Source: Prochlorococcus sp. AG-355-B18
GTDB taxonomy: Bacteria > Cyanobacteriota > Cyanobacteriia > PCC-6307 > Cyanobiaceae
Assembly: GCA_003280965.1 (NCBI GenBank)
Contig: QCDI01000004.1
Span: forward strand, 68,178-132,177
Reading direction: 5' to 3'
Length of the DNA: 64,000 bases
Below the pieces are notes generated by a model. The model searched no databases. It had not been told where the DNA came from and worked only from the letters and a program-made list of their open reading frames with translations. Position 1 is the first letter of the stretch. Each line of letters opens with the position of its first letter. Below, in pieces: positions 38,040 to 64,000 of the stretch. Position numbers and translations under genes: made by a program.

Positions 38040-38332
38040 AATCGTGAATGAATCGTGAATGAAATTAGATTTCCAGCCCTATTTGTTTAGAGCTTGCTTC
38101 TCAATTCTTTTTTCAATCTTATCGAAAAGTTATTCGAGAGGATATATATAGTTACAGATCGCTTGAGACAGAATTTTTTATTTTTTCTTGAATCTTGGTT
38201 AAAAAATAGAGCAAATCAAGAAAGCTAGTTATTGCAATGCTTTTCAGTGATTGATTTGTGCTTCTATTCACGATAGTTTGTAAATCTATTCACGATAACC
38301 CCAAAGAAGCTAGTCATAGATTGATTCACGAT
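38040..38332. repeat. Five copies of ATCGTGAAT/ATTCACGAT (2 forward, 3 inverted) at the island boundary
   Basis: AATCGTGAATG twice at 38040-38061; ATTCACGAT at 38266, 38288 and 38324. Confidence 0.85.
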
Positions 38333-38361: not shown

Positions 38362-38589
38362 TTAAGCTGCTTCTGGAGCGAATATTCTGCTGTTCTCTTT
38401 CCAGTATCTGCAGCCCTTAATTAGATGATCACCTTGAGGAATAAGCTTTTGATGAAACGGACAGGTAAGGATGGTGACACAAGAACTTGTTGTGCTGTAC
38501 CTGAAGTGATTGCAAGTAATACAAATCCTCTGTCGTTTTCTTGTTAATGTCTCTCCCTCTAAATAGTCCCATTCCTGCCAGTCCTCCAT
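38362..38589 (-). CDS. Small Cys/His-rich putative metal-binding protein (75 aa)
   Basis: MEDWQEWDYL...CITCNHF...CPFHQKLIPQGDHLIKGCRYW; ATG at 38589. Confidence 0.75.
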   Translation of the reverse strand: MEDWQEWDYLEGETLTRKRQRICITCNHFRYSTTSSCVTILTCPFHQKLIPQGDHLIKGCRYWKENSRIFAPEAA

Positions 38590-38596
38590 AACAATA

Positions 38597-38612
38597 TAGT
38601 ACAAGTGTACTA
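38597..38612. promoter_or_regulatory. Putative LexA (SOS) box
   Basis: Palindrome TAGTACA-AG-TGTACTA, which fits the cyanobacterial AGTAC-N4-GTACT consensus; 7 bp upstream of the ATG at 38589. Confidence 0.75.
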
Positions 38613-38726: not shown

Positions 38727-39899
38727 TTACGGGAACAATCTATTTCTTAAGGCATCTGTTTCCATTTTATCGATCCTATATTCAAGATTGTCCATTTTAA
38801 ATTTCCTTCTAAGTTCTTTTTGACTATTAATGCTGTCTTGCCATATTTGAAATCCGTTTGTATTAGAACGATTATTAGAAGGAGGAGGACTGTAAGTTTT
38901 ACCAGAGTAATAATTCATACAGCCCTGAAAATCTGAGGCATTCATACATTTGGAATGCTTTGAGTAGGGATTAGTATTAGTAGAATAATTTTTTTCTTTT
39001 GTAGTTTCGCTAGCTTTCCAAGCCTTTTCTACTTCCCTTAAACAGTTGTGCCATTTATACTTTTCTTCAGGCTTGAGATGTATATCTTTGAATCTTTTAT
39101 CACATAAATCCCAAGCGTAAGTTCTACCATTAATACAATCTCTAAGACTCAAGTAGCCATTTCTTTGCCATTGAAGAAGACCACCAAAATTACAAGTTTC
39201 AAATTTTAATGAGCAAATACTATAGTCATCAAAATTATCGTAAGAACCTGAAAAGCAAATCTTTTCAACTTTTTTAAAACATGACACTAAATCTTCAGTT
39301 TCTTCGTCGCAAGCACCTGCTATGCCTGATGTTTTAATATAATAATTCTTGTCTTTAGATGAAATAATTTTCCCCAAATAATTAGAACAAATCTCAGCGT
39401 CTTCATCTAATTTATAATAAATTTTACATTGCTTTCTTATAAATTCTTTTGTATTTTCTTTTCCTATATTAGAAATTCTTTTTAATTTTTCTTTATTAGC
39501 TAATTTAATTTTTTCAATATCTGGTTTACTGGCGGTAATACACGCTGCTTTATTATCTGGATAACTATATTTTGGATCTCCATACTCATCTAACTCTTGA
39601 GGTAATGTATTTCTGTTAATCAATGTTAATTCCTTAAAATCTAAAACATATTCCTCTTCAGCGTCTGAACCTTCCTTAAAAATAAGGATCCGATCTTTCT
39701 CCTTCCACTCTGCAGGCATTTTATCTACTTTCCCAGTTGGGTAAAAAACACTAACAATTTTTTTATTTAAATTAACGTCTAATTTGACTTGATATGTAGT
39801 TCCAAAATTGCAATCTAAATATGTTGATTCGGCTTCAATACTTGAAGGTAAAGCTATTGAAGCAAAAGAAGCAATTAATGGAATTAGAAACCTTTTCAT
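38727..39899 (-). CDS. Secreted Cys-rich hypothetical protein (array member 5; CxxAxDFxGC module near the C-terminus)
   Basis: Signal-peptide-like MKRFLIPLIASFASIALPSSIEA; module HSKCMNASDFQGCM. Confidence 0.8.
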   Translation of the reverse strand: MKRFLIPLIASFASIALPSSIEAESTYLDCNFGTTYQVKLDVNLNKKIVSVFYPTGKVDKMPAEWKEKDRILIFKEGSDAEEEYVLDFKELTLINRNTLPQELDEYGDPKYSYPDNKAACITASKPDIEKIKLANKEKLKRISNIGKENTKEFIRKQCKIYYKLDEDAEICSNYLGKIISSKDKNYYIKTSGIAGACDEETEDLVSCFKKVEKICFSGSYDNFDDYSICSLKFETCNFGGLLQWQRNGYLSLRDCINGRTYAWDLCDKRFKDIHLKPEEKYKWHNCLREVEKAWKASETTKEKNYSTNTNPYSKHSKCMNASDFQGCMNYYSGKTYSPPPSNNRSNTNGFQIWQDSINSQKELRRKFKMDNLEYRIDKMETDALRNRLFP

Positions 39900-40619
39900 C
39901 TAATTACATCTAGGCTTATTCTTCCAAACAGGAGAGTCGCAATTAATTTTTACGGAACCTGAATAAGCTTCTTGTTTTGATGATGGTTTTTTATAGTTCA
40001 GGGCTTTCGTTGCTAATTCTTCAATACCAAAAATATCAAACAGTTCGTTATCTGCTTTTCTTAATTCCTCTGGAGTTGCTTTTTTAGAAATAAATTTCTT
40101 AAATTCCTTCATAGGTAAAGGAGTTATTCTTGGTTTACATGAAGAAGTTGTATAAATAAAAGGTTCTTTATTGGGGCAGTTAGGATCCAAAACAGCTTTG
40201 GCTGATACTCCTAAAGCCAAAGTTTGTGTCCCTCCAAAGATAGGAATAGGTGCTGGTTTAGGGGTATATCCTGCAGATAGCAATGCCAAATGTCTCCATG
40301 GAGTCATATCCCTCAATTTGCTTATGACTTCTCTGCATATACCTCCTCCAGAATAAACAAATCCGTTGGGGCAGCTATTCCCTGATAGCTCAGTAGAACC
40401 CTGTATAACTCTTAGACTTGGAATATCCGTCGACTTACTTGTCTGAGCTTTAATGCAACCTGCATAATCAGCAGCTGGTAAACATAACTTATGAACTTTA
40501 GGATCTACTTCTGCTTTAACTGAAATAGGAAAAGTAAGAGCAAATATTAGTGGGACTAATAAGCGTTTCATCTAATTACACTTGGGCTTATTCTTCCAAA
40601 CAGGAGAATCACAATTAAT
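39894..40619. repeat. 54-bp imperfect direct repeats (39894-39947 and 40566-40619) bounding the 39900-40571 gene
   Basis: 49/54 identical by manual alignment; each spans a C-terminal module, the TAG stop and the next ATGAAA. Confidence 0.9.
39900..40571 (-). CDS. Secreted Cys-rich hypothetical protein (array member 4)
   Basis: Signal peptide ending ISVKA; N-terminal HKLCLPAADYAGC; C-terminal INCDSPVWKNKPRCN. Confidence 0.82.
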   Translation of the reverse strand: MKRLLVPLIFALTFPISVKAEVDPKVHKLCLPAADYAGCIKAQTSKSTDIPSLRVIQGSTELSGNSCPNGFVYSGGGICREVISKLRDMTPWRHLALLSAGYTPKPAPIPIFGGTQTLALGVSAKAVLDPNCPNKEPFIYTTSSCKPRITPLPMKEFKKFISKKATPEELRKADNELFDIFGIEELATKALNYKKPSSKQEAYSGSVKINCDSPVWKNKPRCN

Positions 40620-41507
40620 ATTTCCCACATTCTTTGATTTAGATGAAGTTCTTTTCTTGATGTCTTTATATTTGTAAAGAGAGAAAGTAGAAGGCTTAAG
40701 ATATTCGATCATGTCTTTTTTAGTTCTACAAAAACTTATACCTTTGGTTTTAACCCAATCGTCTTTAGCTTCAGAGAACATAACCCATTTCTTTCTTTTA
40801 CCTTTTTTGTTTATTGTTTTTACTAATCTTTCTTTGAAAAACGTAGCATAAACTTCATCTTCACAATCAAGAATATAATCCCATTGTTGTTGAATTATTC
40901 CTCCAGGAATAGCTGCTCTCCCAGGAATAGTTAATTGAGCAGGAGGGCGCGTATAACAATTGAATGAACCACCTGTTCCATAACAGTTTGTACTGCTTCC
41001 CCCTATGTTGGTTGAGTAACCTGAGGTTCCAGCTTGTGGTTCTTGGTAAAACCTTATAACTGACATTAATTGAATGTATCTACCATATTTGTTGTTAACT
41101 TGAACTTGATATATCTCCGGATTTACATATCCCGCAGCTCTTTTGGCAGGCATATCAGTAAAACGCCAACCTGGAATAACTTTCATTCCTAAGTTGTCAA
41201 CTTTTCCTTTTGCTTCTTCAGGGGAACAATTTCTATATGAACAGTCAATATCATTTGGAGAGATTATTTTTGTAGTATTTAAATTCTCTGGATTTTTTGA
41301 ATATTCCATACATCCTTTATAGTCGGTAGCTTCTAGGCATTTATCATGGAAACTAACTTGACTCATGCAACCTTCATAATCATCTGCTTTTAGACATTTC
41401 TCATGCATATTAGAATCATTGGCAAGAGAAATTTTCCCAGTAAAGGAAAGAGCTAATAGAGCAAATATAAAACTTAAATTGGAACTTTTAAAAAAATTGA
41501 TTTTCAT
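40572..41507 (-). CDS. Secreted Cys-rich hypothetical protein (array member 3)
   Basis: Signal peptide; two tandem HxKCLxAxDYxGCM modules; C-terminal INCDSPVWKNKPKCN. Confidence 0.82.
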   Translation of the reverse strand: MKINFFKSSNLSFIFALLALSFTGKISLANDSNMHEKCLKADDYEGCMSQVSFHDKCLEATDYKGCMEYSKNPENLNTTKIISPNDIDCSYRNCSPEEAKGKVDNLGMKVIPGWRFTDMPAKRAAGYVNPEIYQVQVNNKYGRYIQLMSVIRFYQEPQAGTSGYSTNIGGSSTNCYGTGGSFNCYTRPPAQLTIPGRAAIPGGIIQQQWDYILDCEDEVYATFFKERLVKTINKKGKRKKWVMFSEAKDDWVKTKGISFCRTKKDMIEYLKPSTFSLYKYKDIKKRTSSKSKNVGNINCDSPVWKNKPKCN

Positions 41508-41517
41508 AAGAGAATTA

Positions 41518-42339
41518 TTATTCGATTAGCCAATCCATTTTGTTGTGTTTAGCGCAACCTATGAAATCTTTTGCTTCAACGCATTTCCCTAGATCGTATA
41601 CTCTTTGTTTATAAATTTCCCAAAATTTCTTCAATTCTTTATCATGATTCATAGCTACTTCATAGCAGTAAGCAAACTGACTTAAAGAAGAATAAAAACT
41701 TACTCTAGATTCAAAATCTTTTTCCTTTTCTGCTCCAATAGCCCTGCTGCAAATTCTTTTTCGAGTTTCTTCAGGAGATCTCTTAGAGCCATATTTACTA
41801 ATAATATATTTATCGTTAAAAAAACCTCTGTCAAAAGATGCAACGTCATTTATTTCTTTGATTTTTTCCTTCCTAGATACTTCCGAATCTTTGCTTATAT
41901 CTTTTATATATTCAATATTTTTATTATCCAAATGTTTCCATGCCCTTCCTTCACTAAAAGCAATATAAGCTGGTGACTTAGTTAGTTTATCCTGAGGATT
42001 TTTAGATATGTATTTTTGAAGAATAGATATGCAAGATTTTTCTACTTCTTTTGGAACATCGTAAAGTTTTATAAATGTGTAGCAAGACCCCGCTTTATAT
42101 GAATCTATAGTTTCTCTGTCAAAAACACTACTTTGTAGGAGTGTTTTTTTTATGTTGTTTGTATTACTTAAAAAAAAAGGCAAATATAGTCTCCACCAAT
42201 AATCGTTATCCCAGTTTTTTGTTTCTAACCATTCGCTAGTTGAGCCTGGTGATTTTAGCCATGCTCTTTCATTAACTTCCGCACTAACTGGAGATAAAAA
42301 ACCTAATAAAATCGCTGATATTAATATGCGAATGATCAT
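41518..42339 (-). CDS. Secreted hypothetical protein (array member 2)
   Basis: Signal peptide ending SPVSA; EVNERAWLKSPGSTSEWLETKNWD; C-terminal KCVEAKDFIGC. Confidence 0.8.
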   Translation of the reverse strand: MIIRILISAILLGFLSPVSAEVNERAWLKSPGSTSEWLETKNWDNDYWWRLYLPFFLSNTNNIKKTLLQSSVFDRETIDSYKAGSCYTFIKLYDVPKEVEKSCISILQKYISKNPQDKLTKSPAYIAFSEGRAWKHLDNKNIEYIKDISKDSEVSRKEKIKEINDVASFDRGFFNDKYIISKYGSKRSPEETRKRICSRAIGAEKEKDFESRVSFYSSLSQFAYCYEVAMNHDKELKKFWEIYKQRVYDLGKCVEAKDFIGCAKHNKMDWLIE

Positions 42340-42349
42340 GGTATTGAAG

Positions 42350-43147
42350 TTAAGATTTCTCGTTGAAGCTCATACAACCTTTGTAATCAGCTGCCTTTAA
42401 GCATTTTTCATGATTTTTCTTGTTGTCTGAATTTTGGATAGAAGGTTTAGAAATATTTAATTCTTCATTTTTTTTAGAAGTTTGATTTATTGCTTTCCAT
42501 TTTTCTACTAATTCTAAGCAGTTAACATAAATCCCTAAAGTAGGAAAATCTAAGTCCCTTTCTGTTGAGTAAAGATTACATAGTCGTAATCTTCCAATTA
42601 GCAAATCTCTTTTGCTCATGTTTTTAACTTCAGAATTACCTGAGACTTCGTATAACCAATCTTTGTGGAATTGATCATTAAACCATCCTTTCTTTACTTT
42701 GTATTGCGTATTCCTTACATCTATAAACAATTTAAAATCTTTGTCACTCATCTCTTCTCTCATTAAATTTAATTCATCCTCCTCCCATTTTCTTCCTTCA
42801 TAAAAGGCTTTTTCTTCTTCACTCAGATTCCTTTTAGCCCTTTTTGATAGTTTTTGATAAATAGTTTTACAAGATTCTTTTAGGTAATTAGTGTAATCAT
42901 TCAGTTTAATAAAATCTTTACAGGTTTTTATTTTCGCTTCATCAATCATTTTCTCGTTAATTCTTTTTATCGGTTTGTTATAGAAACGTGCAAGACTATT
43001 AATCCACCATTCATCATCATCCCAATTTTTTGTTTCAAGCCATTCACTCGTGGAACCTTTCGTTTTTAACCATGCTTTTTCATCAACTTCAGCAAAAACA
43101 GGAGATATAAAACCTAGTAAAAATGGTGCAAGCAACAGGTGCTTCAT
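42350..43147 (-). CDS. Secreted hypothetical protein (array member 1)
   Basis: Start moved to ATG 43147 (MKHLLLAPFLLGFISPVFA); EVDEKAWLKTKGSTSEWLETKNWD; C-terminal HEKCLKAADYKGCM. Confidence 0.8.
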   Translation of the reverse strand: MKHLLLAPFLLGFISPVFAEVDEKAWLKTKGSTSEWLETKNWDDDEWWINSLARFYNKPIKRINEKMIDEAKIKTCKDFIKLNDYTNYLKESCKTIYQKLSKRAKRNLSEEEKAFYEGRKWEEDELNLMREEMSDKDFKLFIDVRNTQYKVKKGWFNDQFHKDWLYEVSGNSEVKNMSKRDLLIGRLRLCNLYSTERDLDFPTLGIYVNCLELVEKWKAINQTSKKNEELNISKPSIQNSDNKKNHEKCLKAADYKGCMSFNEKS

Positions 43148-43243
43148 GGCACTAACGAATTTGCACAATGATATATGCAATATCCTTTAATGCCAAGAGA
43201 GATTAATTACATAGTCAGTTTTTAGAAACAATTAGTGATTTAA

Positions 43244-43820: not shown

Positions 43821-43928
43821 ATGACCCCTGAAGCAGAAAGATTTAACGGTTGGGCAGCAATGCTCGGTTTCGTTGCAGCTGTTGGTGCATACGTAACAAC
43901 TGGTCAAATTATTCCTGGTTGGTTCTAA
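43821..43928 (+). CDS. hli: High light inducible protein (35 aa)
   Basis: MTPEAERFNGWAAMLGFVAAVGAYVTTGQIIPGWF; missed by the ORF track. Confidence 0.95.
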   Translation: MTPEAERFNGWAAMLGFVAAVGAYVTTGQIIPGWF

Positions 43929-44062
43929 TGAAAAACACAAAAATAGTTGAAAAGGAAAAGATTATAGCTGAGAAGCTTAACGGCAGATTTGCAATGATGG
44001 GCTTTATTGCTCTTGTTGGTGCTTATCTAACAACTGGTCAAATTATTCCTGGCTTTGTGTAA
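43928..44062 (+). CDS. hli: High light inducible protein (44 aa)
   Basis: AEKLNGRFAMMG...TGQIIPGFV; TAATG coupling gives the start at 43928. Confidence 0.95.
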   Translation: MKNTKIVEKEKIIAEKLNGRFAMMGFIALVGAYLTTGQIIPGFV

Positions 44063-44244
44063 TGCTTGAGGCAGGAATTAACACTTGGATTAACACTATA
44101 CTTTTTCCTTTTATGCCAGTCATAACAGTATTTATGGTTAGTGCATTAATGTTGAGTGATTTGCCATGGAATGATGATGATGACGATGATGATGGCGGTG
44201 GATTAATCTCACCTGTCTATAACTTCGTTCCTCAAGGTGCTTAG
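44062..44244 (+). CDS. Small membrane protein with poly-Asp tail (60 aa)
   Basis: Transmembrane segment then DDDDDDDGGGLISPVY; TAATG-coupled to the hli gene. Confidence 0.75.
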   Translation: MLEAGINTWINTILFPFMPVITVFMVSALMLSDLPWNDDDDDDDGGGLISPVYNFVPQGA

Positions 44245-57165: not shown

Positions 57166-57356
57166 CCATATACTAATAAGTAAAATTACTTATTGTGAGT
57201 ATAAATGCTTATTCTTATTCATTTATCCGCTAATTAGGTTAAAAGAAAAATTTAATGAAAATTTTTAAATCTATTTTCAGCAAAAATTTCACATACTGTT
57301 CCATAAATGCTTATAAAAAAAATTCCTGCTTTTGGTTTACATAACTTAATATTTAT

Positions 57357-57374
57357 GTTACAATGGTTAACAAT
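57357..57374 (+). promoter_or_regulatory. HLR1-like element
   Basis: GTTACAAT-GG-TTAACAAT, 13 bp before the hli ATG. Confidence 0.65.
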
Positions 57375-57387
57375 TGTATTTTTTAAA

Positions 57388-57594
57388 ATGACGAATACTG
57401 GAGTAACAACAGAATCAGGTGGAAGACAAAATATGTTCCCATCAGAAACTAGACCTTATATTGATGAATCAGTTTCTTATGATGGTTATCCTCAAAATGC
57501 AGAAAAGGTAAATGGAAGATGGGCTATGGTTGGTTTTGTTGCATTGTTAGGTGCTTACGTAACAACCGGACAAATCATACCAGGAATTTTTTAA
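57388..57594 (+). CDS. hli: High light inducible protein (68 aa)
   Basis: TTESGGRQNMFPSE, AEKVNGRWAMVG and TGQIIPGIF motifs; start moved to 57388. Confidence 0.95.
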   Translation: MTNTGVTTESGGRQNMFPSETRPYIDESVSYDGYPQNAEKVNGRWAMVGFVALLGAYVTTGQIIPGIF

Positions 57595-57648
57595 TAAATA
57601 AATTTATTTAACTTATAAATCCCAATTTTTAATTTACTACAATTAAAT

Positions 57649-57777
57649 TTAATTCAATTTAGAGAATAAAAAAAACCAACTAAAAGTTATTGCATTAAGG
57701 CCAAATATTATTCCTAGAAATATATATGCGAATTTTTTTCCTATAAAGGCTGTATCAGGCTCAAGTTTTACTCTCAT
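57649..57777 (-). CDS. Single-transmembrane micropeptide (42 aa)
   Basis: MRVKLEPDTAFIGKKFAYIFLGIIFGLNAITFSWFFLFSKLN. Confidence 0.5.
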   Translation of the reverse strand: MRVKLEPDTAFIGKKFAYIFLGIIFGLNAITFSWFFLFSKLN

Positions 57778-58232
57778 AAATTTCTAGTATTAATTAGACG
57801 AATTTAGCATTATTTACAATATAAATATGGAATTTGCAAAAGAAAAAAATTAAATTAATATTTCCTTCCTTTACTCTTTTATCTGAATTTAATTTGCAAC
57901 ATTTTTATCAAATTATAATTGGGCAATTTTTTTATTAATATTGTTGTTGCCTGTAACCTTTCTGGGTTTGAGTGAATCTTGCTCCAATGTAAATTAATAA
58001 AATTAGCCAAAAAATGATTTCCAAACTTAGGTTAACCATTTAATTTACCTTAAATCTATTGATAAACTAATTCCAAATGTGTTATCTCTGTAAAGTCTTT
58101 ATACTGATTTTAGTTTAATATCATTATTTGATAAAGTATATTTCAATTATAGTTTATCTCTAAAATCTAATATCAATAAAAAATCAAAAAAAAGAACCAA
58201 AGAAATTGGCTCTAAAAAAGTTTAAAGTTTGG

Positions 58233-58373
58233 TTAGATAAAACCGGGAATAATTTGACCTGTAGTTAAATAAGCTCCAACTAGTGCTACGAAACCCAACA
58301 TAGCAAATCTTCCGTTTAACTTTTCAGCTACGATTTTTTCTTTTTCAACAATCTTTGGTTCAGTATTATTCAT
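58233..58373 (-). CDS. hli: High light inducible protein (46 aa)
   Basis: MNNTEPKIVEKEKIVAEKLNGRFAMLG...TGQIIPGFI; start at 58373. Confidence 0.95.
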   Translation of the reverse strand: MNNTEPKIVEKEKIVAEKLNGRFAMLGFVALVGAYLTTGQIIPGFI

Positions 58374-58480
58374 TAGAACCAACCTGGAATAATTTGGCCT
58401 GTAGTTACATATGCGCCGACTGCTGCAACAAAACCTAACATTGCTGCCCAACCGTTAAAACGTTCTGCTTCTGGAGTCAT
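58373..58480 (-). CDS. hli: High light inducible protein (35 aa)
   Basis: MTPEAERFNGWAAMLGFVAAVGAYVTTGQIIPGWF; same protein sequence as 43821-43928. Confidence 0.95.
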   Translation of the reverse strand: MTPEAERFNGWAAMLGFVAAVGAYVTTGQIIPGWF

Positions 58481-58493
58481 TTTTTTAATGTGA

Positions 58494-58511
58494 TTTGTAA
58501 ATAAATATAAC
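58494..58511 (-). promoter_or_regulatory. HLR1-like element
   Basis: GTTATATT-TA-TTTACAAA on the minus strand, 13 bp upstream of the hli ATG. Confidence 0.55.
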
Positions 58512-58714
58512 ATATTTATTTATTAATGTAAAGGATAGTTCATAGAATTGCCAATTAAATATAAATAAAAACAATTATGCGACAAATATGTATCGACTTA
58601 TACTTTATTGACGATATGCGTTTTCTGGAGTTTGATAAGGAAAATATAAATTAAGAGCTTTATCTTTATAGAATTAAATCCTCAATTGAAAGTAAATTAA
58701 ATTAAAATATATTT

Positions 58715-62897: not shown

Positions 62898-64000
62898 TCA
62901 ACTTATTGGGATTAATTTTTCATTTTTATTATCCCAAATAATATATTTAAAGCAGTTTGAAAAATCGCTTAATCGCAAAAACTTTGAATGCTGAAGCAAA
63001 TGAATATTTGCTTTATGACAAGCCCTTAAGTTGTAATTTGGTATTCTCTCAGAGAGATGATGAATGCTGTGGAAGGATATGTCAGCTAAAAACCAATTAA
63101 GCCAATTAGGTATATCTAAATTGCTACTACCCAAAATCGCTCCATCGACGATATCCCAATTTTTCGTCTTTTTAGCATATGCATTTTCATAGTTATGTTG
63201 TACAAAAAAAACGCATATTAAAATTGAAGCTGATAGGGTTAACATCACAGAATAAAATGATAAGAAAAAAACTAACCCCAACCATTTGCACATAAAAATC
63301 CACCCTATGATTACTATTACGTTATTAATTACTAACTCAAATAGTTCACTAAAATTATCTCCATAATCAGAAAAAGGTGGTTTAACTCTCGAATTTATAG
63401 CTAAAAGTTTAGAAATTTCTCTATTTTTTATTTTGATAAAAGTCTCTTTCAATACATCTTTAGTAAAATTAAAAATGATTATAATTAGCCCTAATCTAGG
63501 CTTTAAAACTAAATAATAAAAGCCTCCAGGGAAAATCATTACCCAATCTCGACTTAATTTATATAAAAATTTCTCTCTTTTTGAGAGAGAATTATAATCC
63601 TCAAGACTTAAAACATCTATAGGGCCTTTATAAATTTCCCAGTTTCCATTATTTTTATGATGGAATGCATGATCAATTGACCATGATTTCTGGGGAATAC
63701 CATTTACTAAACCAAGTAAGAATCCAAAAAAGCGGTTTAATTTCCTTTTTGTAAAGAGAGAATTATGACCGCAATCATGCATTAATGAGAATGTTCGTGA
63801 AGAGAATAGAGTTAAAAGACAAATAATAGGTATCAATAAAAAACCTTTTATCAATAATGAAAGAGGTTGATTTATTATTTGGTAAACAATTATCCAAATA
63901 GAAATTATTGGTAGGATGGTACAAATAATTTGGTATGAAGCTCTAAAATTGTTTCTTTTTAGAAATGGCCGGATTAAAAAATCACTTCTATTTACCTTGA
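62898..64000 (-). CDS. Membrane fatty acid desaturase (start lies beyond the window)
   Basis: His boxes HDCGH, HAFHH and HSIHH; the frame stays open to the window edge. Confidence 0.9.
   Translation of the reverse strand, partial: KVNRSDFLIRPFLKRNNFRASYQIICTILPIISIWIIVYQIINQPLSLLIKGFLLIPIICLLTLFSSRTFSLMHDCGHNSLFTKRKLNRFFGFLLGLVNGIPQKSWSIDHAFHHKNNGNWEIYKGPIDVLSLEDYNSLSKREKFLYKLSRDWVMIFPGGFYYLVLKPRLGLIIIIFNFTKDVLKETFIKIKNREISKLLAINSRVKPPFSDYGDNFSELFELVINNVIVIIGWIFMCKWLGLVFFLSFYSVMLTLSASILICVFFVQHNYENAYAKKTKNWDIVDGAILGSSNLDIPNWLNWFLADISFHSIHHLSERIPNYNLRACHKANIHLLQHSKFLRLSDFSNCFKYIIWDNKNEKLIPIS

Follow-up and report, generated by a model that had tools for sequence, protein, structure and literature searches.

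A small cysteine-paired module shared by diverse exported proteins of picocyanobacteria and its possible role in envelope docking

Five genes in a variable part of the genome of Prochlorococcus sp. AG-355-B18 encode predicted exported proteins that all carry a short, cysteine-paired module. Judging from sequence patterns, this module, termed A, likely functions as a tag, and we tentatively suggest that unrelated payloads dock through it to a shared partner in the cell envelope. The genes lie at 38727 to 43147 of the window, the 64,000-nt stretch of DNA analyzed here (G000:C4:68178-132177, where G000 is the host genome; the contig ends at window position 64000). The host genome has a size of 1.58 Mb, a GC content of 31%, and a completeness of 99.35%. 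As described in an initial annotation of this DNA, the five open reading frames (ORFs) are co-oriented, here on the minus strand, and span 4.4 kb with gaps of 0, 0, 10, and 10 bp. None of the five proteins has a match above curated cut-offs in Pfam, NCBIfam, or PHROG.

Module A is a unit of ∼25 residues with the core CxxAxD[YF]xGC, in which eight residues separate the two cysteines (C-x8-C). Matches to the motif pattern, all on the minus strand, locate the cores at 42374..42403 in gene 1, 41554..41583 in gene 2, 41367..41396 (first copy) and 41310..41339 (second copy) in gene 3, 40455..40484 in gene 4, and 38919..38948 in gene 5. These six copies in 4.4 kb compare with two in the remaining 1.58 Mb, which precede a TPR protein and a PDZ protein, and a hidden Markov model (HMM) recovers the same eight. 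The initial annotation had counted six copies across the five proteins and had placed most of them correctly, except that the copy in gene 5 is internal (residue 318 of 390) and the copy in gene 2 has no His ahead of the first Cys.

The module is widespread in picocyanobacteria. Its DNA pattern is present in 98 of 285 genomes of the same genus, at 144 places, and in 120 of 401 genomes of the family, which belong to 31 of its 64 genera; reversed and family-level controls gave 0 and 2 matches, respectively. A profile built from 86 nonredundant copies has matches in 10 of 20 other genomes of the family and none in a set of 230 genomes that represent other families of the class. A 28-position profile identifies 741 clusters in a protein library clustered at 50% identity; of the best 150 of these 741, all but one, a repeat protein unrelated to the others, have the strict motif (149 of 150). 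Searching Pfam with the 86 sequences gave only four single-member hits (E 0.03 or worse), below the cut-off, so module A does not map to a known Pfam repeat. No NCBIfam or PHROG family is above its curated cut-off, matches to PDB sequences are limited to designed helical repeats (E 0.13 and 7.8), and ESM Atlas returned nothing for the module. The strict pattern occurs in two viral contigs, which we treat as chance matches because the motif is in no listed ORF, and no real viral copy was found. The modules are unnamed in the literature searched, with supplements, subscription papers, and motif strings outside its scope, and a description may exist.

The invariance of the A motif, judging from copies found by other means, is not merely an artifact of the search pattern. 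Across all loci the HMM detects 153 copies, of which 149 are strict and four deviate, with none missing a Cys. When the payload of gene 3 was used alone as query, 15 other genomes were found and C-x8-C is kept in all 15 (11 with the strict motif, three with an Ala-to-Val change, and one degenerate). Likewise, no known member of the gene 1/2 family (six in total, at 31–81% identity) has lost its C-terminal A. Every synonymous codon is in use at the fixed residues. Conservation of the motif in these payload-only and HMM copies, together with free synonymous codon use, indicates that the A peptide is under selection.

Module A is associated with many kinds of protein. Once the modules are masked, the fetched loci provide 144 proteins bearing A or B (a second module, described below) that form 28 groups, 27 of which have A; this clustering left out one off-frame chance match (L162) and two viral chance matches (L133 and L134). 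The initial annotation had proposed unnamed disulfide-type modules on interchangeable payloads, and these groups bear that out. Recognized payloads are TPR, PDZ, and MORN domains, a trypsin-like protease, signal peptidase S26, and an outer membrane beta-barrel; most others have no Pfam family. Lipoprotein versions also carry A (L054, L055, and L154). In 142 copies, A is N-terminal behind the signal peptide in 126, internal in eight, and C-terminal in eight, with four proteins that have over-long start calls counted as N-terminal. C-terminal and internal copies belong to a subtype that also heads some proteins with the E domain of gene 3 (see below); Met follows the second Cys in 13 of 16 of them versus eight of 126 others, though kin are not independent in this comparison. 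Two proteins with a signal peptidase I domain (P0078 and P0081) have a cleavable-looking signal peptide and A in place of the usual membrane anchor, and two outer-membrane beta-barrels (P0088 and P0095) are headed by A. In genus g29, a syntenic gene (L141:2684-3019 and L233:1336-1761) encodes little beyond a signal peptide, A, and a short tail.

AlphaFold2 (AF2) models A as a helix-turn-helix in both proteins modeled (predicted local distance difference test, pLDDT, 74–93 by block), and its disulfide, based on cysteine spacing and parity, is predicted to join the helix-turn-helix. Of 100 nonredundant A proteins, 94 have an even number of cysteines, compared to 409 of 773 background ORFs (53%), and the number is even in all five proteins of the window. 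The array proteins are cysteine-rich, as first described, with contents of 2.2–3.9% against a background of 1.13%. The predicted unit is reminiscent of CHCH (twin CX9C) proteins such as NDUFA8, which also have a disulfide-clasped helix-turn-helix; a comparison of tandem A to NDUFA8 is not significant (E 0.2). Unlike in CHCH proteins, whose two helices are joined by two disulfides from two CX9C motifs, a single Cys pair, spaced C-x8-C, lies across the turn of A, which is bacterial and predicted to be Sec-exported, and the tandem copies of gene 3 are spaced 8-9-8. Prediction of a complex of two A copies scored 0.02 (mark, 0.42), a "no answer" that is not evidence either way.

The A proteins more likely reside in the periplasm or envelope than are freely secreted. 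A hydropathy script, used rather than SignalP, found a basic-hydrophobic N-terminus in each of the five array proteins, in agreement with the signal-peptide-like starts first noted, and no second hydrophobic segment; beyond residue 35, no stretch of 19 residues exceeds a hydropathy of 1.09 in any of the five. Sec-exported proteins without a secretin route stay periplasmic unless they are inserted in the outer membrane or released in vesicles. Genes for VKOR, a single Omp85, and a single TolC-type protein are present in the host genome. No secretin was found in it by a search whose control was positive in six of 14 genomes, and no ATPase of a type II secretion system (T2SS) or type IV pilus was above cut-off; a TpsB search of the same genome was uninformative, with no match for its control. 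Because the host genome lacks a secretin, residence in the periplasm or envelope is favored. The PDZ, trypsin, S26, and TPR payloads are typical periplasmic types. Release to the outside, as the initial annotation had envisaged, is thus doubtful.

The simplest explanation for a conserved mini-domain that occurs in any position, on payloads as different as PDZ, TPR, protease, barrel, and lipoprotein ones, is a handle that binds one shared envelope component. Our leading interpretation, which falls somewhat short of probable, is that A serves as a handle by which proteins dock to a shared partner in the envelope and that it has been spread by recombination. The five genes would be an island-borne, likely co-transcribed set encoding predicted Sec-exported, disulfide-bonded proteins. 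Their products would cross the inner membrane by Sec, be oxidized by a VKOR-type system and, with no secretin route, remain in the periplasm, outer membrane, or vesicles. There, A would dock the fused payload onto the common partner, probably on the periplasmic side. Recombination in the shared DNA encoding the signal peptide and A may swap payloads and build X-A-Y fusions, and integrase-bearing elements may carry A genes between cells.

Several observations weigh against this interpretation. Strict A is absent from 187 of 285 genomes of the genus and from 54 of 92 near-complete ones, and since about two thirds lack it, a docking partner would need another role. The gene families that recur within 4 kb of A genes are only mobile-element genes and include no partner candidate. 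Most copies of A simply follow a signal peptide, as would a passive leader or capping element. The thylakoid lumen is also a possible location for A proteins. Short metagenome contigs are the source of both the S26 and the barrel fusions, and other hits of that search (P0032, P0037, P0098, and P0119) look chimeric. RNA runs yielded only short contigs, at a depth of 2–5, and do not establish transcription of the array. Lastly, for 81 of 93 proteins the nearest A is within the same payload family.

Small lineage-specific tags on exported proteins are already known. Dockerins, SLH, choline-binding, and LysM domains, as well as LPXTG, PEP-CTERM, GlyGly-CTERM, and the C-terminal domain (CTD) of the type IX secretion system (T9SS), are such tags on unrelated exported proteins. 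Like them, A is one small conserved module on many exported payloads, is restricted to a lineage, and is common in islands. A differs in being soluble and closed by one predicted disulfide, in having no transmembrane helix, basic tail, or calcium loop, and in its freedom of placement, which may be at either terminus, inside a protein, or as a tandem pair. Specifically, no C-terminal transmembrane helix plus basic tail, as in LPXTG, PEP-CTERM, or GlyGly-CTERM architectures, is present in the five proteins; the calcium-binding loop that we take to define dockerins (DxN/DxDG) is absent from the A and B consensus, and there is no Pfam Dockerin hit. No gene for a processing enzyme or receptor is among the recurring neighbors within 4 kb of A genes.

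The five genes differ in how they combine modules and payloads. Gene 1 (42350..43147, 265 aa, six Cys) encodes a signal peptide, a conserved stretch called C by the initial annotation, a payload of no recognized family, and a C-terminal A. It starts with ATG, and a TTG is upstream at 43180. Its relatives P0129–P0132 have an identical architecture, and P0133, which looks chimeric, has only A in common with the family. Gene 2 (41518..42339, 273 aa, six Cys) is a full-length paralog of gene 1 (33% identity over 285 columns, E 8e-32) with a divergent C-terminal A. The central regions had been described as largely unrelated; this does not apply to genes 1 and 2, which are paralogous over their full length. 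Genes 1 and 5 also have in common ∼80 residues that run up to A and take it in (E 5e-5). The stretch C (43016..43087 in gene 1 and 42208..42279 in gene 2, minus strand) does start both proteins, as first reported, and is the best-conserved part of one protein family. As a mobile module it was rejected: genes 1 and 2 are paralogous throughout and four relatives keep C, payload, and C-terminal A, so C is better viewed as the conserved start of that family.

Gene 3 (40572..41507, 311 aa, 12 Cys) encodes a signal peptide, two tandem A, a beta domain "E", and a C-terminal B. The E domain has a long Gly/Thr-rich, Cys-tipped hairpin and belongs to a component of 29 in the masked-payload clustering. 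The AF2 model of the core is confident, with blocks >90 over most of residues 91–270. Its best structural match, Haemophilus influenzae Protein E (Adhesin_E, PF16747; 3zh5, Z 4.8, root-mean-square deviation 4.1, 101 aligned), is weak, and the likeness involves the payload of gene 3 only; the second-ranked match is 6gut (Z 4.5). Unlike Protein E, the gene 3 product has no Pfam hit, has the long Cys-tipped hairpin as an insert, and is not a lipoprotein. Foldseek found no match to the model at E 0.001, ESM Atlas finds a resemblance to two unnamed clusters (0.76), and the protein has no match in 50,697 phage records.

Gene 4 (39900..40571, 223 aa, eight Cys) encodes a signal peptide, A, a Cys-knotted domain "D", and B. 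The D domain has the pattern GNxCPxGxAYxGxGxC...DPxCPxxEP...C with a hypervariable center, and a fold search with the model of gene 4 found no match (best Z 3.2). The D module (40134-40382, minus strand) heads a family of ∼27 proteins (e.g., L142, L150, L171, and L225), and its relatives in the larger genomes of the family share another tail, C...YxxYLxANPxMKxWAE, which may be a counterpart of B. Gene 5 (38727..39899, 390 aa, 14 Cys) encodes a signal peptide, an N-terminal domain, a Cys-rich middle, the internal A, and a tail. Its first domain occurs elsewhere as a stand-alone small gene (E 1e-11, 67 columns including the signal peptide), and no full-length relative was found in 284 genomes.

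Genes 3, 4, and 5 are a single reading frame interrupted by two TAG stops. Genes with an MKRLL-type signal peptide start at once after an upstream stop, in frame with a gap of 0, in 14 of 45 cases versus 24 of 322 in the background. Such starts are found in the window (39899/39900 and 40571/40572) and at L002, L056, L064, L070, L077, L098, and L145, and several of the genes upstream end in KGK-stop, giving a ribosome-binding-like sequence. Promoter and terminator counts in the array region are at chance level, so that the best promoter-like site (10/12; 43168..43196, minus strand), 21 nt upstream of the gene 1 start codon, is only a hint.

Module B, a C-x10-C loop, ends the products of genes 3 (40575..40619) and 4 (39903..39947; both minus strand), as originally described. 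It is a second tag, independent of A and confined to chain ends, and the two meet in this array. The B pattern is present in 39 of 285 genomes of the genus (control, 0) and has no matches in viruses. Across the family sample, it is found in 10 of 136 genomes, nearly all <2 Mb, with a clear motif in four of nine hits inspected. Among 40 B-bearing ORFs, a set that omits five further proteins with both A and B, the module directly follows the signal peptide in 13, is C-terminal in 26, and is in a short, broken-looking frame in one. We rejected an obligate head-to-tail pairing of A and B because 31 of the 40 lack A and B has low confidence in the AF2 model of gene 3. In sister genera, B-like loops of divergent sequence precede a conserved tail of the SPMDMD type at the C-terminus (L145:2772-4025, L154:3086-3742, and P0035).

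Alternatively, A and B could be autonomous folding or end-capping units that bind no stable partner, protecting the free end after signal cleavage or handing the chain to disulfide or chaperone machinery. We consider this unlikely, yet it is consistent with the predominance of A behind signal peptides (126 of 142 copies), the confinement of B to chain ends, the tiny disulfide loops of both, and the lack of a linked partner gene. A cap would not be expected at C-termini, inside fusions, or in tandem as in gene 3, and many proteins with the same signal peptide are without A (three of seven in the host genome). The fixed Asp, aromatic, and Gly residues exceed the needs of a cap, though they may be purely structural.

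The site of the array is hypervariable between genomes. Its flanks can be aligned as DNA in 36 genomes of the genus, and none of the matches listed spans the array (four candidates were scored per genome; these statements cover the matches listed, and there are 100 weaker ones beyond). The equivalent site was fetched from 20 genomes, of which none has this array, one has an A gene, and two have a B gene; variation of the locus between strains had been anticipated by the initial annotation. A gene for an EVE domain (Pfam E 5e-54) is ∼700 bp from the array start, and the genes past it vary genome by genome in the 20 syntenic loci, among the matches listed. Four loci found via module A (L055, L087, L135, and L137) occupy the same site, two of them in other genera. 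In one marine metagenome, four contigs cover most of the array with zero differences, and three other runs contain pieces of it. The array is therefore not an assembly artifact.

The gene content of the window (hli clusters, gpmI, and pyrR) is typical of high-light Prochlorococcus, and tandem high-light-inducible (hli) genes, ordinary for the lineage, are in two island clusters at 43832-44064 and 57307-58513. Between the EVE gene and the array, 38041-38332 has five of the 10 genomic copies of one 9-mer, two on the minus strand and then three on the plus strand, an arrangement reminiscent of the arm-binding sites of recombinases at the border of an island. The small gene at 38362-38604 (minus strand) is rich in Cys and His (CxxCxHF...CxxH...C) and has no family above cut-off. 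It adjoins the EVE gene in at least eight syntenic loci, where a cargo gene, ATP-binding-looking or other, frequently accompanies it. No Rfam matches were found at 36–50 kb.

Variability at this site is in line with the possibility, raised initially in more general form, that the proteins are polymorphic adhesins, decoys, or toxins, released or displayed on the surface against phages or grazers, with A as an export signal. PMC4949707 argues that variability among exported proteins may help cells to escape phages and grazers. The hypervariable center of the D domain, the resemblance of the gene 3 core to Protein E, and a B-tagged payload with a below-cut-off similarity to Adhesin_E (E 0.002) are also compatible with such a role. 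The Protein E match is under the trust level of the tool itself. The host genome lacks a secretin and T2SS ATPase, and payloads such as PDZ, trypsin, S26, and TPR argue for a periplasmic location. The array showed no toxin family hit, no small interleaved genes, and no immunity gene, though it may encode toxins of an unknown kind. PADLOC matched none of six proteins. We have no direct evidence for an antiphage or antigrazer role and regard it as improbable.

Clustering of A genes is seen beyond the window, as the initial annotation had expected: 25 of 136 copies in other genomes are within 5 kb of another. One layout recurs in the window, L053, L135, and L146, in which one or more genes with a C-terminal A immediately precede an E-domain gene headed by A. 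A could accordingly self-associate such that array products co-assemble, for example with the tandem A of gene 3 holding the C-terminal A of genes 1 and 2, and the subtype shared by C-terminal and internal copies is consistent with this. We rank this slightly lower still, as 111 of the 136 copies have no strict neighbor within 5 kb, many genomes have a single copy, and the layout is equally explicable by fission of fused X-A-E forms, which are found in L064, L106, L112, L135, L137, and L142. The recurring layout is most simply explained by fusion and fission at A. Double-headed fusions of two A-headed units also occur (P0134 and P0138).

Exchange of A is also seen at the DNA level. A regions on unrelated payloads are up to 85% identical over 78 nt (a TPR protein of L093 vs. 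L104), and in 12 of 93 cases the nearest A belongs to another payload family. Payload shuffling is thus occasional and not rampant, given the 81 that stay in their own family. The idea that A has no protein function and is a hitchhiker on a signal-peptide cassette, serving only as a DNA crossover point, would fit this identity, the fusions joined at A, and metagenome contigs that break at junctions of B and signal peptides, but is very improbable and largely refuted by free synonymous sites alongside Cys, Asp, and aromatic residues fixed across 31 genera, by retention of both Cys in 15 of 15 payload-only hits, and by a mean DNA identity of just 51% among copies on unrelated payloads. Contigs from eight sequencing runs gave no convincing joint indicative of active rearrangement between modules.

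Mobile elements are a potential means of transport. An integrase gene is ≤4 kb from an A gene in 14 of 102 loci, making it the commonest unrelated neighbor, and genes for DnaB-like helicases are near A genes in six. One contig (L144:535-16124) has a ∼5-kb block of integrase and A gene twice, inverted, which is a real duplication or an amplification artifact. The integrase neighbors fit transport by the integrative elements described in bioRxiv 10.1101/2020.12.28.424599, in whose consulted passages the modules are not mentioned. As in the tycheposons and islands of Prochlorococcus described there, the array is made up of flexible genes with no known function at a site that is both conserved and variable, with integrase and helicase genes near A elsewhere. 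Unlike tycheposons, the array has no tRNA gene in the 64-kb window, and no integrase was recognized among the ORF lists of 33–64 kb.

The docking interpretation can be extended to a dual handle, in which A belongs to an undescribed envelope display system of picocyanobacteria. As protein, A would dock payloads on a conserved carrier to the outer membrane or vesicles and, as DNA, would be the crossover joint for fusions. We view this as a minority possibility, well below docking itself. No other part of picocyanobacterial genomes is as poorly annotated or as strain-specific as that for exported proteins, of which 54% are uncharacterized (PMC4949707). A 28-position profile unites 741 protein clusters that lack a family name for this segment. 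Small enough to be synthesized, A could be used as a bait to reveal how proteins encoded in islands are placed in the envelope of cells without a type II secretion system. If A is a dual handle, it would provide the ocean's most abundant phototrophs with a combinatorial, strain-specific surface repertoire that alters recognition by phages and grazers.

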